From a bacterium (lineage in GTDB: Bacteria > UBA8248), in contig OZ244799.1 in the NCBI GenBank assembly GCA_965219955.1, forward strand, positions 1,568,001 through 1,632,000: a stretch of DNA of 64,000 bases, in the 5' to 3' direction. A program made the position numbers and the translations under genes. Shown piece after piece: positions 56,511 to 64,000 of this stretch; the first letter of the stretch is position 1; each line of letters begins with the position of its first letter. The notes under the pieces are model-generated. The model was not told the origin of the DNA and did no database searches. It was given only the letters and a program-made list of their open reading frames with translations.

Positions 56511-56929
56511 AGGCTGCTCAAAAAGCCTCCGTCGGTCAGGCGAAACGCGACTGCAGGGACAGGTCGCGACCTGTCCCTACGGAAAAGCAACCCCCCCTAC
56601 CCCCCCTTGTCAGGGGGGCATAAAAAGGCGATGCGCCCTCGCCGAGATGAACACAAATCAACTCCCCCCTTGAGACTTGTTCGCAATTCAGCAGAGCGGA
56701 ATCACTCCCCCCTTGAGGGGGAGTCGAAGAGGCCGAGCGGTTTGTGCGAAGGCCGATTCGGTGGGGGGAGCTCTACCCTGTGGCATGTCCCCCCACCGGC
56801 GCGACTTCGGGCTTCGCCCTCGTCTTGCCGTCTGGCTTTCCCCTCGGGAAGCCAGATCCTCAAGGGGGGAGTGAACTTCAAAAGCGTGCGCTCAACCAAA
56901 ATCGCTCCACGGGCTTTTTCCACAACTCC
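56511..56929. repeat. Composite palindromic repeat cluster 5
   Basis: Degenerate E ends at 56511 / 56911, half REP at 56553-56580, F unit at 56588-56618, A element at 56700-56874. Confidence 0.8.
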
Positions 56930-57013
56930 GCTTGCGGGCGTGCGCCGCATCTTCTAGGATGGCTCCCACGCAGCCCTTTATGAAACCTTTCGGCCGTTTT
57001 TGGGAAAACGCAT

Positions 57014-58291
57014 TTGGAACGACTACACCGTCTCTTCCCAGCCAGACACTGGATTTTCATCGTCTCCGCTTTCGTTCTCCTGGGGCTCTTCTCGGGCCTG
57101 AACTTCCTTTTCGGCGTATTCCTGAACCCCCTGGTGGATGAATTCGACTGGACCCGCTCGACGGCCTCGGCGGCGTTTTCCATCAACATGTTCATGATCG
57201 CGTTCTGCTCGATGATCGCGGGCGGTTTTTCCGACAAGTTCGGCACGAGGCCCGTGCTGATCGTCGGGATCCTGATCTCCGGCGGTTCGCTGCTCCTCTC
57301 CTTCTTCATCCAGAACCTGTGGCACTACTTCCTGTTCACCGGCGTGATGGCGGGCACGGGGCGCGCCGCCATCGCAACGCCCGTGCAGGCCTTCATCCAG
57401 CGCAACCTGACCAGGCACCGGGGGCTGGCCACCGGGCTGGCCGGCTCGGGCACCGGTCTCGGCATCCTGATCCTGGCGCCCCTCACCGGTTATTTCATCA
57501 GCACCCACGGGTGGAGACACTCCTACCTGTACCTGGGCGTCATCTTCTTCGTCCTCGCCATACCCGCGGCCATGACCCTCGTGCCGCAAAAAAGGCCCCC
57601 CGCGGGCGGCGGCTCCGCCGGCTCCCCGGCCAGGCAGGAAGACGCCGCCCCGATTCTCCCCGAGGCGTCCCTGGGCATGCGGGAGATCTTAAAGCGCAGG
57701 CCGTTCTGGATGATCATCTCGAGCCACGCCACCGACTGCATCTGCCACTCGGTGCTCATCGTCCACCTGGTGCCCATCGCGATCGAGGCGGGGGTTCCCC
57801 ACATACAGGCGGCGGGCCTCGTGGGCGTCATGGGCCTGGGGACGCTCATCGGCCGGATCAGCCTGGGCATACTGGCGGACCGCATCGGGTCGAAATGGGC
57901 GCTGTTCATTACGCTGCTGACGCAGACGATACCCGTTCCCCTGCTCTGGTGGTCCGATTCCATTTATGTATTCTACGCCGTCGCCCTCATGGTCGGCACC
58001 GGCATGGGCGGACACGGGACGATGTACCCGATGGTCACCCGCGAATACTACGGCACCAGAAGGGTGGGCATCCTCTACGGGGCCTTCATCTCGGGCGCGA
58101 GTTCGGGCATGGCCACGGGCGGGTTCCTGGGCGGGCTGCTGCACGACATGACGGGCGACTACACGCTCTCCATCCTGCTCAGCTTCGTGACCGGCGTCGC
58201 CTCGCTGCTGTTCGTCCTCGCCTACCCTTCGAGAATCAAACCGATCCGGAAAGAGGACGTGGCGCACCCCGTCGCCCAGCCCGCGGGCTGA
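57014..58291 (+). CDS. MFS transporter (MCT/OFA-like)
   Basis: 12 TMs; SDKFGTR, RGLATG and LADRIG motifs. Confidence 0.9.
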   Translation: MERLHRLFPARHWIFIVSAFVLLGLFSGLNFLFGVFLNPLVDEFDWTRSTASAAFSINMFMIAFCSMIAGGFSDKFGTRPVLIVGILISGGSLLLSFFIQNLWHYFLFTGVMAGTGRAAIATPVQAFIQRNLTRHRGLATGLAGSGTGLGILILAPLTGYFISTHGWRHSYLYLGVIFFVLAIPAAMTLVPQKRPPAGGGSAGSPARQEDAAPILPEASLGMREILKRRPFWMIISSHATDCICHSVLIVHLVPIAIEAGVPHIQAAGLVGVMGLGTLIGRISLGILADRIGSKWALFITLLTQTIPVPLLWWSDSIYVFYAVALMVGTGMGGHGTMYPMVTREYYGTRRVGILYGAFISGASSGMATGGFLGGLLHDMTGDYTLSILLSFVTGVASLLFVLAYPSRIKPIRKEDVAHPVAQPAG

Positions 58292-58340
58292 GGGGTCGGG
58301 GGGGGGCCGGTGAAAGAGGGAGAACCACTCCTCTCTTGTC

Positions 58341-59009
58341 GGGTTGTTGAGAAAGTCCCTTCAAGCGTTGGGGATACGATGGTTTTGTAGGGACAACCCT
58401 CCGTGGTTGTCCTTCGTCAGGACAGGCACGGAGGCCTGTCCCTACGGGTGAATGCGGTTCTGATCGTCATTCCGGCATCAGTCCCAACTGATAAAGGAGG
58501 GATTGACCGGAATCCATTTTCGCCTTTGTCTTTGGCCTTTCGCCCGGACGTCCTCTCTTCCGACCGACGCGAATGGAAGAATCACTCCCCCCTTGAGGGG
58601 GAGTCGAAGAGGCCGAGCGGTTTATGCGAAGGCCGATTCGGTGGGGGGTAAAATGCGTTTTATCGCCATCCGAATTATACCCCCCACCGGCGCGACTTCG
58701 GGCTTCGCCCTCGTCTTGCCGTCTGGCTTTCCCCTCGGGAAGCCAGACCCTCAAGGGGGGAGTGATTCCTCTCTCTAGTTGGTTGGCGCTCTGCAGGGGG
58801 GGTTGACGTTACGGGATTTCCCCCTCGAGGGGGTTGCCATGACCCTCCCGGGGGGGTTATCAATACCCTTTTCAAGGGCCGGCGCGCTCCTGCCGTGGCC
58901 TGTTTCACCAGCCGCCGCAGGGTTTCTTGCGGGTGAACGCGTCCGGTCCGGGGAAGAAAGGGCCGACACCCCTCGAAGGGCTGCTTTCAGGGGTTGTTGA
59001 AAAACCCCC
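58341..59009. repeat. Composite palindromic repeat cluster 6
   Basis: E ends at 58341 and 58990, REP pair 58387-58445, C unit 58465-58516, A element 58580-58767. Confidence 0.8.
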
Positions 59010-59280
59010 GAGTGTGGGAACTGCTGCGACACAATCCCAGAGGTGCAGGCCGAGTCGGGGTGTCGGCTGCTTTCTTGAGAAGCGCGAAACAGGGGCTGCC
59101 CGTTGTTCCCGTTCCCGGCTCGAGGACTCAAACTCATAACCAGGAGCGGTACTGTTTGCTCTATCACGAGGGAAGCAACCAACGGGCAACCCCCTTTTCC
59201 ACTCTTCTTCCTTTTCCTTCGCCCGCCTCAGGCTCCGGGACGATGAAGCCCCCGCCCGAGACCGAAGGCGTCCTGTTCTC

Positions 59281-60987
59281 TTACCTGTGCGCTCCAAACG
59301 CCCCGATGAAGGCGGCGTCTCCTTCGCCAACCGTCTGCCTCTTGACATAAAACGAACCTGCAACAGAACCAGGCTCGTCCGGAGAGTAGGTTGTCGTTCT
59401 TGTTCTCTCGGGAGTGTTGCTTGGAACATCAGCAGTATCTGAAGTAGCGCTGGCTCTCATTCCGAAGAACTGGCCCTTCCAACTGCCGGTATAGGCGTGA
59501 CCCTCTATTACACCAGCAGCATCTCCTTCAAAAGCTGCAAGAGTATTCACCAAGGGCTGTTCCTTCAAGTCGATGCTTCCCGTGATGGAATTTCCACCGG
59601 CGCTGATGCCCGTGATTGCTCCTGAAATCTTGCTGCCCGCAACATCTGCCCCGGCTCCGCGCACGAACGTAGCCGTGAGCGATACATTCGCCTTGAAATG
59701 GCTGGCCTTTCCGCCGGCGAAATACGCGCCGTTCACGCCCCCACGGTAAGTTGCTTCCGTGCTCTCATTTTCGTCAACGAATCCGGCTATCGTGTTAAAA
59801 CCGGTCGCATTCACGCATGCCCTGGACTCCGTACTGGTGTTAGTTACATCAGCTGCGGTGCAGAAATCATGTGTCGTCCCCGTCCCGTCGAGAGGCTGAC
59901 TCCCGAATGCAAATGCTCTCAGGATGGAAGTGCCGGGAGTTGCATCATCGAGCCAGATTCCGGCGAGCAGATAATCATCGTCGGCGACGTACTTATACTG
60001 CTCATTTATACGGTTGTCTGGGTCACCAGATACGTCAGTAAGGTTCTCTTGGGGACCATCTGAGGCAGAATCCCCTGTTTTTTGCCTTACCGGTGAGTCT
60101 ACTTTGATATCCGTGTAGACAGTGGCGAATCTGCCGCCGCTTTTCAGGTCGAAGCCATTGGAAAGAGGTGCAGATCCGGAGATTTTGCCCGTCTGGCTAT
60201 CCGATGAAACATTCGTCTCATTGACCGATACCGTTACTCCCAGCACGCCTCTTTCCGTATTCCTGGGTATTGGATAGTTCATTCGGGTGTCACCTTCACC
60301 TTTGTGGTACGGATAAGTGGCACTAGCACCTGTCGATCCCACCTCGATGGAAGTAGCCGCTAGTCCGCTCAGAACCGCATCGGATATTTTCTTGTTATCC
60401 CTCAAGTACCTGATGAGCGAGGACCCGCCCGTCAAGGCGGCCTCGTCCGCTTCCCGTTGTTGGCGTTGGTTCGCGGCCACCTGCACGGCGCCCTGAATGC
60501 CCGCTATTGACGATGCGGCTGCGTTGAGAGTGCCTGCAGCCTCTCTCGCGTTCCCCAGCGCGGTATTCGCCTCCGCCGGCGTAGTGGCCAGGGTCGCCGC
60601 AGTATTCGCGCTCTCGATACGCGCCAGGGCGCTTTGCGCATCATTGCTGTGGCTGATGGCGCTCGTGATTTGATCGGCCGTGGCGTCGGCGTTGGTTTGT
60701 ATCGCGGCCGCGGCCGAACTCGCCGCCCCCGCCCGCGTCCGGGCACTTGAAAGGATAGTTGAAAGTTCCCGTCTGGCCTCGGCTATCTTTTCCGCATCGG
60801 TCGGCTCGGGCGGTGGCGGATCCGCGCAGTCCGGGTACGTCCCGACCTGACCCTGCGGGCATTCCATCACCGGCGGCGGCATTTCTTCCGCAGTACCGCC
60901 GCCGCCCCCGCCGCCGCAACCGGAGGCAAATGCCGCAATGCACACGACAAGTACCGCCAATCCTGAATATCTGAGCATTTTCATCAT
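59281..60987 (-). CDS. Surface lipoprotein with TbpB/HphA-like C-terminal beta-barrel
   Basis: Lipobox ASG-C then poly-Gly; YLLAGIWL, ATYRGG, GSWKGQFFG, VAGSF and terminal GAFGAHR. Confidence 0.8.
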   Translation of the reverse strand: MMKMLRYSGLAVLVVCIAAFASGCGGGGGGGTAEEMPPPVMECPQGQVGTYPDCADPPPPEPTDAEKIAEARRELSTILSSARTRAGAASSAAAAIQTNADATADQITSAISHSNDAQSALARIESANTAATLATTPAEANTALGNAREAAGTLNAAASSIAGIQGAVQVAANQRQQREADEAALTGGSSLIRYLRDNKKISDAVLSGLAATSIEVGSTGASATYPYHKGEGDTRMNYPIPRNTERGVLGVTVSVNETNVSSDSQTGKISGSAPLSNGFDLKSGGRFATVYTDIKVDSPVRQKTGDSASDGPQENLTDVSGDPDNRINEQYKYVADDDYLLAGIWLDDATPGTSILRAFAFGSQPLDGTGTTHDFCTAADVTNTSTESRACVNATGFNTIAGFVDENESTEATYRGGVNGAYFAGGKASHFKANVSLTATFVRGAGADVAGSKISGAITGISAGGNSITGSIDLKEQPLVNTLAAFEGDAAGVIEGHAYTGSWKGQFFGMRASATSDTADVPSNTPERTRTTTYSPDEPGSVAGSFYVKRQTVGEGDAAFIGAFGAHR

Positions 60988-61115
60988 TTGCCCCCTAAGG
61001 CTGCCCCCCCTCCTGAAGCGGAAGGGGGCGGACGGATTAAACTCGGGTTCCATCTACCGCTTGCGCGCGCCGGAGCGCCTGCGCATCCAACTCCTGCTTC
61101 TTCCTCCCATCCCCC

Positions 61116-61143
61116 GGCCCCGGGCTTGATGCAGCCCGGGGCC
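61116..61143. terminator. Hairpin after the upstream lipoprotein gene
   Basis: GGCCCCGGGCT-tgatgc-AGCCCGGGGCC. Confidence 0.45.
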
Positions 61144-61165
61144 CTGAGGAGTCATGCGCTGTTGC

Positions 61166-63034
61166 TTACTCGGCTCTCCACGTGCCGAAAGAGCCCAGGA
61201 TTCTGACCGGGTCACCGGAATGCCCCGGCGCTTCCGCGGCAAAAGTGCCTGCCGCGGTCGTGGGGTGGTCACCGCTGCCGTAGAACTGGCCGCCCCACTT
61301 TCCGGCCATGGCCCGGCCCGCCAGGGTGCCCGAAACCTTGTCGCCGAAGCCTAGAGCGGACGTGCCAGCAAGATCACCAGTCGCATCCGTATCAACTGTT
61401 ATCGTCGCCCTCCCCAGCGTCAGCGAGCCTTCCACGTCCATGCCGCCGGCCCTGATGTTGGAGATGGAGCCGGTGACGGCGCCCAGGAGGTTGGTAGCGG
61501 CGATTTCGGCTCCGCCGAAGTTGGCGTTCAGGGTGGCGTCCGCGTCGAAGTATTCGACCATGCCGGCCGCCGAATACGCGCCGCTCGCGACGCCGTTATA
61601 CGTCGCCGTGCCCTTGTGGGCACCGGTGACAGTGAACACCTGATTGCCGTAAGCGAATGCGCCCGCCTGGGCGGCATCGGCCGTTATGGCGGAAGTAACA
61701 CCATTAGTAGCTACATTTTGCAGGGAGTCCCTGGTGGAACCGGTTACCCAGAAACCCCAGGCCAGGTAGTCGCTATCCGCCTTGGTGGTTCCGTCGCTCT
61801 TATGGAATGAGTAGCCCGTATTCGCTACGATCTTTCCACTCGCGTCGACACTGATTGAGCAAGTGGTGGCAGGAGAGGCAGAGGCGCCAGCACATTGAAA
61901 TTGTCCTGCAACCGGAGGGTTATTGTCTGCGGGATTCTGGTTGAACGTCGCCGCGAAATTGCTTCCGTCCCCCGCGACCTCCCCCGCTACGATTACACCA
62001 TTGGTGGCGGTGATATCGGCAATGGCAACTGTAGCATCAGAAACATAGTTCTGGGTCGGCGCCTGAATGTCCGTGTTGACGACGAGATGAGATTTCACAT
62101 TGGCGCCATCAACTGGCTGGGTCACCAGATCCTGGGCTTCCCAGCCTCCCTTGGTCTGGAAGCGTGAAGGCGTTTCACCCATCACCAATCTCTCAGTATT
62201 AGCAACACTGGGACTAGCAGCACTACCACCAAGGTTAAGCGCAAATGTGGATCCGCCCGCCTTATGCACGACTACTGCTGTAGGTGAGGTACCTCCACTA
62301 ATAGGTGATACACCCATACTTACGGTAGCAGCTGCATTAGTTCCAGTTTCCTCAGCAGGAGTAGTTGTTGAATCACTGCTTGCGCTCAGGTTCGTAAGAC
62401 CAGCAACAGTAGCAACAGTAGCAGACCCAGCCCCTGCGGCATTTGCCATTGCTATGCCCACGTTCGCCGCATTTGAAACAGACTTGGGCGGATCCTTGCC
62501 CTCCAACTCGGCATTTGCGATATCTTCGCCGTTGAGCTGCTTGTTCGCCAGCATGGTAACACCCAGGCCGCGCGCCATCCCCGCTTCCATCGCCATGTCG
62601 CGGGCCGCCTCGGCCTTCATCTGGTATTCCATGGCCATTTCGGAAGTCGTGGCTGCAGCCGCCATGTCGGACGCTTCCTTGGCCATCGCCGCGTGCGGCT
62701 GCGCGTTGCCCATCGCCACGGGGTCCTTCGCGCCGCCTACGGCCGCCATCGCCGCCATGTAGGCCGCCATCGCGGCGTCCTGCGCGTCGCTCAGGGCCTT
62801 TGCTTCGGCCATTTCCGCGGCGAGCTCTTCAGCGGAGACGCAAGCTCCGTCTCTCCACTCGCCGTCGTTACCCTCGCACATTTCCTGCGGGGTCGGTTCC
62901 GGCATGGTGGGCGGCTCCGGGTCCGGCGCCGTGGCGCTGCCGCCACCGCCGCCGCAACCGGCCAACACGAGGGCGAAAACCGCCGCCATCGCGAAAGCGT
63001 AAAGCTTGGTTATCGATTTATCTTTGAACGTCAT
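61166..63034 (-). CDS. Surface lipoprotein with TbpB/HphA-like C-terminal beta-barrel
   Basis: Lipobox LAG-C then GGGGG; YLAWGFW, TATYNG, GKWGGQFYG, AAGTF and terminal GSFGT; AGGAGG RBS. Confidence 0.8.
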   Translation of the reverse strand: MTFKDKSITKLYAFAMAAVFALVLAGCGGGGGSATAPDPEPPTMPEPTPQEMCEGNDGEWRDGACVSAEELAAEMAEAKALSDAQDAAMAAYMAAMAAVGGAKDPVAMGNAQPHAAMAKEASDMAAAATTSEMAMEYQMKAEAARDMAMEAGMARGLGVTMLANKQLNGEDIANAELEGKDPPKSVSNAANVGIAMANAAGAGSATVATVAGLTNLSASSDSTTTPAEETGTNAAATVSMGVSPISGGTSPTAVVVHKAGGSTFALNLGGSAASPSVANTERLVMGETPSRFQTKGGWEAQDLVTQPVDGANVKSHLVVNTDIQAPTQNYVSDATVAIADITATNGVIVAGEVAGDGSNFAATFNQNPADNNPPVAGQFQCAGASASPATTCSISVDASGKIVANTGYSFHKSDGTTKADSDYLAWGFWVTGSTRDSLQNVATNGVTSAITADAAQAGAFAYGNQVFTVTGAHKGTATYNGVASGAYSAAGMVEYFDADATLNANFGGAEIAATNLLGAVTGSISNIRAGGMDVEGSLTLGRATITVDTDATGDLAGTSALGFGDKVSGTLAGRAMAGKWGGQFYGSGDHPTTAAGTFAAEAPGHSGDPVRILGSFGTWRAE

Positions 63035-63291
63035 TTAGTGAGTCCTCCTGAATACACAGTAGAAAAAGGGATTTTCAGTGAATTTCCGGCTTTCTCCGAT
63101 TAACCTCCTTTCCTTCTCATATACGGGCCTTCACAAACCGATTGTCGTATTTCGGCCAGCCGGAAGGACGGCGGACTTGCGGACCCATCGTCCGGGCTGG
63201 TATTAACTCTTTCCGCGACACACGAATCCCTGAGGTATGCGCGCACCTTTTTCGGTCTCCACAGACGAACCGCCTCGCACCCGGCCTGCCC

Positions 63292-63313
63292 GCCGCTAAT
63301 TATTGTTACGGGA
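63292..63313. other. Left tyrosine-recombinase-type site (IRL)
   Basis: GCCGCTAA-TTATTG-TTACGGGA; inverted copy of the site at 63461. Confidence 0.65.
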
Positions 63314-63431
63314 CGCGGGAAGCCCCGTTCTCCGCCGGAAAACCCGTTCCGGGGCGCGCGCGGGCCGCAAAAGAGCGAAAAAAGACGGAAAACGGCGCCC
63401 GAAAACTCCTCCAGGGACCCCGGAATTGCGC

Positions 63432-63459
63432 TTGACATGGTTTTGAGAGGTGTTATATT
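63432..63459 (+). promoter_or_regulatory. Sigma70 promoter inside the inverted-site segment
   Basis: TTGACA-16 bp-TATATT with extended -10 TGn. Confidence 0.7.
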
Positions 63460-63460
63460 G

Positions 63461-63482
63461 TCTGATAACAATAATTATCGGA
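63461..63482. other. Right tyrosine-recombinase-type site (IRR)
   Basis: TCTGATAA-CAATAA-TTATCGGA: 7/8 inverted arms around a 6-bp spacer, dif/Xer-like ATAA-N6-TTAT. Confidence 0.7.
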
Positions 63483-63619
63483 ATTCAGAAAATCCACCGC
63501 CCCGGGTGGATATCCGCGTCCAGAATCAGCTTTTTTTCCTGGAAATTCCCCGCCGTAGTCTATACTCTGTCATCGAGGAGGTTCTCGGGCGGAGCGAGGC
63601 GCCCGGGCGGCCTCAGGGA

Positions 63620-64000
63620 ATGGAAACAGCCGCTGACCCGGAAGGTTGGCTTCTCACCATGACGACGGGGGCGACACCACTCGACCCCACCCAAGACATC
63701 GCTTTGACGAATACGCCGGCCGGGGGGCCTGCCCCGGTCCGGCCGGCCGCGGACCTGGCGAAGGCCTCGATGGCGAAGAACACGCGGCGGGCGTACGAGG
63801 CGGCGCTCAGGGGGTTCGAGCGTTCGGGCCGCCCGGAGACCGACGCCGGGGTGGCGGCGTACCTGGGGGACCTCTACGAGGAGGGGCTTTCCGCGGCCTG
63901 CGCCGCCATGACGGTCGCGGCGCTCCGCTTCCGGGCGAAGCTGGGCGGCCGGCCCTCTCCGGTGGGGGCGGCTTCGGAGCGGGTGCTGGCCGGCTTCAGG
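63620..64000 (+). CDS. Cre-like tyrosine recombinase, N-terminal SAM-like domain (partial)
   Basis: Manual translation: ...ASMAKNTRRAYEAALRGF...VAAYLGDLYEEGLS...TVAALRFRAK...VLAGFR; start at 63620 or 63659; catalytic domain lies outside the window. Confidence 0.75.
   Translation, partial: METAADPEGWLLTMTTGATPLDPTQDIALTNTPAGGPAPVRPAADLAKASMAKNTRRAYEAALRGFERSGRPETDAGVAAYLGDLYEEGLSAACAAMTVAALRFRAKLGGRPSPVGAASERVLAGFR

Follow-up and report, generated by a model that had tools for sequence, protein, structure and literature searches.

Invertible promoter elements (invertons) switched by a tyrosine recombinase are a known kind of regulatory device in gut and urinary-tract bacteria. In Escherichia coli, fimS with its recombinases FimB/FimE is a promoter inversion of this kind. 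In Proteus mirabilis, the mrp element carries a sigma-70 promoter on a short invertible segment next to a surface-structure operon, and the tyrosine recombinase MrpI is encoded beside this element on its own transcript, according to the passages of PMC7444556 dealing with this switch. We analysed a stretch of 64,000 nucleotides (the window; positions 1,568,001 to 1,632,000 of contig OZ244799.1) from an uncultured bacterium of the lineage UBA8248, whose genome (4.28 Mb, 61% G+C) is designated G000 here; the window thus corresponds to G000:C1:1568001-1632000. Close to its right end, next to a gene for a Cre-like tyrosine recombinase, lies an element (63292-63482) that is very probably an inverton switching genes for surface lipoproteins.

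Like mrp and fim, this locus combines a short invertible segment carrying a sigma-70-type promoter with nearby genes for surface structures and a tyrosine recombinase gene alongside. Unlike in these systems, one of the two orientations appears to place the recombinase gene under the control of the invertible promoter, and the module of site, promoter and site is present in multiple copies (4 in this genome and up to 17 in a congener), fronting lipoproteins and adhesin-like proteins instead of fimbriae. Gut Bacteroidales likewise possess many promoter invertons with a common repeat consensus in front of genes for surface molecules. Compared to these multi-locus systems, the recombinase studied here belongs to another clade and its host to another lineage, a recombinase gene comes with most cassettes, and each locus tends to have a spacer different from the others.

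A first-pass annotation of this DNA, made by a model from the sequence alone, had proposed two inverted recombination sites around a promoter, and most of its interpretation held up. Both sites are present, namely GCCGCTAA-TTATTG-TTACGGGA at 63292-63313 and TCTGATAA-CAATAA-TTATCGGA at 63461-63482. The left site is composed of an outer arm (63292-63299), a 6-bp spacer (63300-63305) and an inner arm (63306-63313), the right site of an inner arm (63461-63468), a spacer (63469-63474) and an outer arm (63475-63482). With inverted arms of the consensus TCCGATAA around a 6-bp spacer, they resemble tyrosine-recombinase core sites. The sites share the perfect 12-bp inverted core TAATTATTGTTA (63297-63308 on the plus and 63466-63477 on the minus strand), which is found once per strand in the window, and the match extends to 15 of 16 positions if 63293-63308 is compared with the reverse complement of the right site. 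Shuffling of the window gave an expectation of 0.03 occurrences of the core against the two observed, a number that was reached in 0/100 shuffles, and there is no further occurrence in the 4.28-Mb genome. Because of this excess and of the uniqueness of the core in the genome, the sites are not chance repeats. The value of about 165 bp given by the annotation for the enclosed DNA is fair: the two 22-bp sites are 147 bp apart, and their spacer centres 169 bp.

The 147 bp of the inner segment (63314-63460) are at least 90% identical in most columns over the 53 copies described below. At its right end, on the plus strand, lies the promoter TTGACA-16-(TGt)TATATT (63432-63459), with the -35 box at 63432-63437, the -10 box at 63454-63459 and a TG ahead of the latter. 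This near-consensus promoter (score 11/12) is conserved among the copies and points, as had been annotated, to the right towards the recombinase gene and away from the lipoprotein genes. It was the single distinct sigma-70-like site in a scan of 58800-64000, where three entries represented overlapping variants on the plus strand; on the minus strand, which is the lipoprotein strand, the scan of this region revealed no promoter-like site. The predicted transcription start would fall inside the right site. An Rfam scan of 62900-63750 yielded a chance-level match only, so that no known RNA accounts for the conserved segment. A terminator-like hairpin at 63400-63383 on the minus strand is weak (5 pairs) and of a type that is rarer here than in shuffles, and nothing was concluded from it. 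A -10-like TATACT (63561-63566), located ahead of the recombinase start and not part of the invertible DNA, stays below the threshold of the promoter scan; it is a candidate that could sustain some basal expression of the recombinase after a flip.

G000 contains three more copies of the stretch 63211-63491, with 79-88% identity (C1 2928476-2928745, 4270811-4271080 and 3301693-3301975). In each of these four modules, that of the window included, the left spacer (TTATTG, TTGTCG, ATGTTG and CTGTTA) and the right spacer are exact reverse complements of each other, arms and promoter are conserved, and the homology stops right after the right site. Lipoprotein paralogues are located on the left in all four, and a full recombinase gene on the right in two of them (63292-63482 and 3301693-3301975). 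The same site-promoter-site layout, for which the first-pass annotation had recommended a search of related genomes, exists in congeners, too. Among 40 other genomes, 13 gave a match, including 12 of the 22 from the same genus, 11 of those over at least 150 bp; the highest numbers were found in G002 (16) and G012 (17). We analysed 53 modules from 11 genomes and G000, leaving out the remaining matches on short contigs: 4 modules from G000, 16 from G002, 17 from G012, 4 from G011, 3 from G016, 2 of 7 matches from G003, 2 of 3 from G018, 1 of 2 each from G021 and G005, and one each from G008, G014 and G017.

The spacers match exactly within the module in 51 of 52 cases (the 53rd module is cut by a contig end), and at the same time 21 distinct spacers occur. 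No other part of the element varies as much as the spacer, the rest being at least 90% identical in most columns; (T)CCGATAA is the consensus common to the four half-sites, and the left outer arm mostly reads CCGCTAA. Tyrosine recombinases require spacer identity between partner sites, and spacers that are matched within yet diverse between modules fit this requirement. The sole mismatched module (L044 in G002, TTGCCG vs TTGCCA) differs in one base and is accompanied by a truncated recombinase gene; it may represent a locked switch. Several assemblies break in or beside the module (G003:C152:133-412, G003:C151:2-79, G012:C1:17-199 and G014:C8:1-42). Such breaks are expected for a repeat, and mixed orientations would also be compatible with them.

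The 5' part of the recombinase gene occupies 63437-64000 on the plus strand. Counted from the first ATG, the open reading frame (ORF) has 390 codons, 188 of them inside the window, and it extends to the window-equivalent position 64609; for the remainder, in which the catalytic residues lie, we used the genome sequence beyond the window end. A start at 63620 (METAAD) or 63659 (MTTGAT) seems likelier than at the first ATG. The protein matches Pfam PF00589 with 64.9 bits (cut-off 27.1, E 1e-17). Its best match in the PDB is Cre (E 1.3e-13), with both domains aligned (residues 66-325 of the 329-aa form with Cre 59-338), and 17 of 18 PDB matches are Cre or Cre-derived (E 1e-13 to 7e-12), followed by a XerC-like protein at 2.7e-4. 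The catalytic residues, whose loss the first-pass annotation had named as a point that would speak against a switch, are all kept and aligned with Cre: R238, E241, K263, H337, R340, W363 and Y372 in the 390-aa numbering, which correspond to R173, E176, K201, H289, R292, W315 and Y324 of Cre. The annotated distinction from FimB-type enzymes also holds, as the scores for NF007371 (26.5 bits, cut-off 222) and NF007370 (15.9 bits, cut-off 221) indicate.

Thus the closest solved relative is the Cre recombinase of phage P1, and as in Cre/loxP the sites here consist of palindromic arms around an asymmetric spacer that is kept identical between partners. The similarity is distant, though. loxP has a 13-8-13 arrangement of 34 bp, in contrast to the 22-bp sites found here, in which arms of only about 8 bp enclose a 6-bp spacer, and Cre/loxP serves plasmid dimer resolution or circularisation, while a chromosomal promoter inversion is proposed for the present system. 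The natural spacer variants resemble the engineered spacer variants of lox.

Recombinase and module are linked in the genomes of the genus. All 11 module-bearing congeners have a match to the recombinase, compared to 3 of the 11 module-less ones, two of these matches being fragments; related genomes are not independent samples for such a co-occurrence. In 35 of the 53 modules a recombinase gene or fragment is found within 1.6 kb, with the promoter directed towards it in 30 cases and away from it in 5, all of them among the flipped modules described below. The recombinase gene duplicates together with the module. From its position and its residues, the Cre-like recombinase of this locus would be the invertase of these sites.

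At G000:C1:2610027-2610322 and 4016029-4016326 there are two fragments of recombinase genes, a C-terminal and an N-terminal one, which seem to be left over from additional cassettes. In modules lacking the recombinase gene (2928476, 4270811, L053, L058-L060 and L065) the right site is followed by a common stretch of about 150 bp, possibly a trace of a recombinase gene that has been lost; behind it lie repeats resembling repetitive extragenic palindromic (REP) elements (gtagggacaggcc..., ccccccctaccccccc...). Outside the genus, recombinase homologues with 40-67% identity (L075-L154) occur in metagenome-assembled genomes (MAGs) titled Acidobacteriota, Binatia, Poribacteria, Multivorans, Longimicrobiales, Trueperaceae and others, which suggests a spread of the recombinase across phyla. 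In the 800 bp upstream of 50 more distant homologues, two of which were known positives, an inverted pair matching at least 16 of 18 positions was detected in only 4 cases, and 46 had no such pair.

The inversion between the sites that the first-pass annotation had predicted is found in relatives. Compared to the conserved flanks, the inner segment is inverted in 6 of the 53 modules, from three congeners: 3/16 in G002 (L047, L049 and L050), 2/17 in G012 (one module of L062 as well as L066) and the only module of G014 (L052). For this comparison, modules were oriented by their promoter and counted as inverted if the outer flanks were swapped and reverse-complemented. In BLAST comparisons of 62900-64699 (window numbering) with the inverted loci, flank, segment and flank match on alternating strands, and the strand changes at 63297-63308 and 63466-63481. 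In the inverted copies the outer arms stay with the flanks, the distinctive CCGCTAA arm with that of the cargo, whereas the inner arms move with the segment, and this places the strand exchange in the TAA-N6-TTA core. L052 has the same spacer as the window locus (TTATTG) and a recombinase that is 84% identical. Its left junction reads GCCGCTAATTATTGTTATCAGACGAT and is identical at 25 of 26 bases to the flipped left junction predicted for the window locus.

Several observations weigh against an active inverton. In contigs of the Logan collection from four runs (X1-X4, all from one sample), no flipped junction of the window locus was found over 62800-64000, and both sites are spanned by contigs that have the orientation of the assembly, with a depth of about 50 in X1. 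As contigs drop rare variants, this result limits the flipped fraction and leaves room for a minority orientation. The promoter faces the recombinase side in all four G000 modules and in 47 of the 53 modules overall; for this reason some copies may be biased or fixed. Furthermore, the spacers are not strictly locus-specific, with 8 spacers over the 16 modules of G002 and 13 over the 17 of G012. Contig loose ends at 63114 and 63482 were considered as flipped junctions and rejected, since they belong to paralogous G000 loci: the latter fits the right flank of locus B and the former the leader flank of loci C/D. Exact 24-mers of the flipped and of the assembled junctions gave 0 matches each in metagenomes of the Joint Genome Institute, a collection that seems to be without this organism, so that this search is uninformative. 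Ten of 20 rows of matching runs are labelled sponge metagenome (shares 0.12-0.25), which we counted as no evidence on the habitat.

The uniform orientation could mean that the inverton family is real, but that the window locus, and perhaps all four G000 loci, no longer switches; the promoter would then be a fixed recombinase promoter, with the lipoproteins silent or otherwise expressed. The missing flipped junction in the four runs of the sample and the common orientation of the G000 modules agree with this explanation, as does the same orientation of the matching modules in the closest relative, G011. Nevertheless, we consider it unlikely: the spacers are perfectly matched, arms and promoter are intact, the recombinase retains all its catalytic residues, the same spacer occurs in a flipped module of a congener, and a minority orientation can escape contigs.

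Far less probable still is a small mobile element that inserted in either direction, with the inverted repeats as its termini and without any inversion. Multiple copies (up to 17 per genome) with inverted repeats at their ends, and the breaking of several fragmented assemblies at the module, would suit such an element. In contrast, the flanks (lipoprotein leader and recombinase gene) are duplicated together with the module. Only the inner half-sites move in the flipped copies while the outer ones stay with the flanks, so that the breakpoint lies inside the site, and the repeat centres, matched within each copy, differ from one copy to the next, which is unexpected for termini bound by a transposase. 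Least credible of all is that the sites are merely operators of a DNA-binding regulator for divergent transcription, or autoregulatory or resolution sites of the recombinase: they are AT-rich palindromes beside a promoter, the right one overlaps the predicted transcription start, and their GATAA...TTATC palindromes are reminiscent of Fur-type boxes, but a regulator needs no reverse-complement centres varying freely between loci (51/52 matched, 21 spacers), and the six inverted copies would be left unexplained. In an additional role, the recombinase may autoregulate its gene by binding at the transcription start.

Taking the element as an inverton, we propose the following mode of action. In the assembled state transcription from the promoter would begin within the right site and run rightward through the recombinase gene, and the lipoprotein operon of two genes, for which no promoter of its own was found, would be OFF. 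Strand exchange within the identical spacers would flip the segment. Transcription would then proceed leftward across the left site and a conserved leader (63035-63114) to the lipoprotein genes (ON), and the neighbouring recombinase gene would be cut off from the promoter of the inner segment (local recombinase OFF). Two of the four G000 modules must be served in trans, because they are without an intact adjacent recombinase gene. Differing spacers would limit recombination between loci, only partly in G002 and G012, because there 8 spacers serve 16 modules and 13 serve 17, respectively.

The proximal lipoprotein gene of the putative operon (61166-63034, minus strand) encodes 622 aa with the lipobox LAGC (Cys27) followed by a glycine run; its N-terminal region is Ala-rich, and a beta-barrel of about 150 aa is predicted at the C-terminus (AlphaFold2 model). 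The distal gene (59281-61053, minus strand) encodes 590 aa from the first ATG, with the lipobox ASGC and again a glycine run; its true start is probably at the methionines of MMKMLRY. The conserved leader in front of the proximal gene is located on the minus strand, contains a ribosome-binding site, and is found at three further places in the genome with 92-95% identity over 79 bp. A fifth copy of leader and signal-peptide start, at G000:C1:2359156-2359267 (92% over 79-115 bp), has no module match beside it.

The first-pass annotation had called these products two minus-strand TbpB-like lipoproteins. Two ORFs with a lipobox are indeed present, while the likeness to TbpB has no support at the sequence level and is restricted to the fold of the C-terminal barrel. 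Searches of the window lipoproteins against Pfam and NCBIfam gave no family, with one match below the cut-off in the signal-peptide region. Pfam-A searches with 7 lipoprotein paralogues (E up to 1) returned only the unrelated PF11593 (Med3, E 0.86, one member), and PDB profile searches with 7 and with 31 lipoprotein sequences no TbpB/Slam-type chain. For the C-terminal 235 aa of the proximal lipoprotein, AlphaFold2 modelling with 31 paralogues reached a mean pLDDT (predicted local distance difference test) of 79.6 and a pTM (predicted template modelling score) of 0.73, with the barrel strands mostly above 90. Among the Foldseek matches of this model the Slam-dependent proteins fHbp, HpuA, NHBA, HphA/hemophilin, TbpB and PmSLP dominate, at weak E-values of 0.002-0.02 and template modelling scores of 0.3-0.6. 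A 473-aa frame of the genome matches the Slam family PF04575 with 94.8 bits, above the cut-off, and none of 14 control genomes gave a match; the lipoproteins would presumably be surface-exposed by means of this Slam homologue.

Lipobox and glycine-rich linker are common to these proteins and the Slam-dependent lipoproteins of Neisseria and relatives (TbpB, fHbp, HpuA, NHBA and hemophilin), among which the predicted C-terminal barrel, possibly of the eight-stranded type, has its best structural matches. The difference is that the cargo here has no sequence-level family match and that the Foldseek E-values given above are weak. The ...GAFGAxKQ-type C-terminus of the lipoproteins is also typical of the Slam-dependent family. 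To our knowledge, control of this family by an inverton has not been described.

A lipoprotein paralogue lies on the cargo side in at least 37 of the 53 modules. In a second subfamily of modules, present in G002 and G012, the cargo proteins have 1,000-1,350 aa; one of them was scanned and contains cadherin-like and fn3 domains. Divergent modules have cargo of other kinds: the module beside the recombinase homologue of L087 has an Ig-like repeat protein as cargo, that of L127, from a MAG titled Thermoanaerobaculia, a He_PIG protein, and that of L083:2351-2545, from another genus, a PAP2-type lipoprotein with a Tat signal. In the latter module the site centre has 7 bp (CTTCTAC) and is matched in both sites. 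The cargo thus appears to be of cell-surface type throughout, which argues for an inverton controlling surface proteins. To the left of the lipoprotein genes, 56600-59200 contains short repeated elements with near-identical translations of spurious ORFs and a ...PLEGESKRPSGLCEGRFGGG motif at 56607-56957 and 58403-58651; judged by their sequence, these elements are a REP-like family or one resembling miniature inverted-repeat transposable elements (MITEs).

Literature searches on invertons and phase variation in this lineage and on Cre-like invertible promoters yielded no description of such a system. The passages of the inverton survey PMC11602134 that we consulted do not treat this lineage, and its supplements could list predictions. 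Although promoter invertons with a tyrosine recombinase are established, new features of the present one are the Cre-like clade of the enzyme, lox-like sites of 22 bp whose spacers vary in nature and the multiplication of the cassette including the recombinase gene. The same is true for the promoter shared between enzyme and cargo, for the Slam-type and cadherin-/Ig-like cargo and for the occurrence in an uncultured lineage known only from MAGs.

Tentatively, and with somewhat less than even confidence, we suggest that the modules serve multi-locus antigenic variation in a probably host-associated marine lineage, as self-limiting toggles whose spacers act as orthogonal lox-like addresses. Depending on its orientation, the invertible promoter of a cassette would express the Cre-like recombinase belonging to it or a surface protein, and the switching rate of the cell would therefore fall as more loci turn ON. 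Thanks to the fast-evolving 6-bp spacers, as many as 17 loci could flip independently of one another and leave the chromosome unscrambled. If this applies, the modules would represent a natural set of orthogonal sites with new Cre-like enzymes, and the first mechanism of surface phase variation in such a symbiont.

The family to which the probable inverton at 63292-63482 belongs points to programmed surface variation, directed against host, phages or grazers, in an uncultured marine lineage. The series of matched natural spacers offers a ready test of spacer orthogonality and is a possible source of recombinase/site pairs, and one promoter feeding recombinase or cargo in turn would be a simple feedback design.

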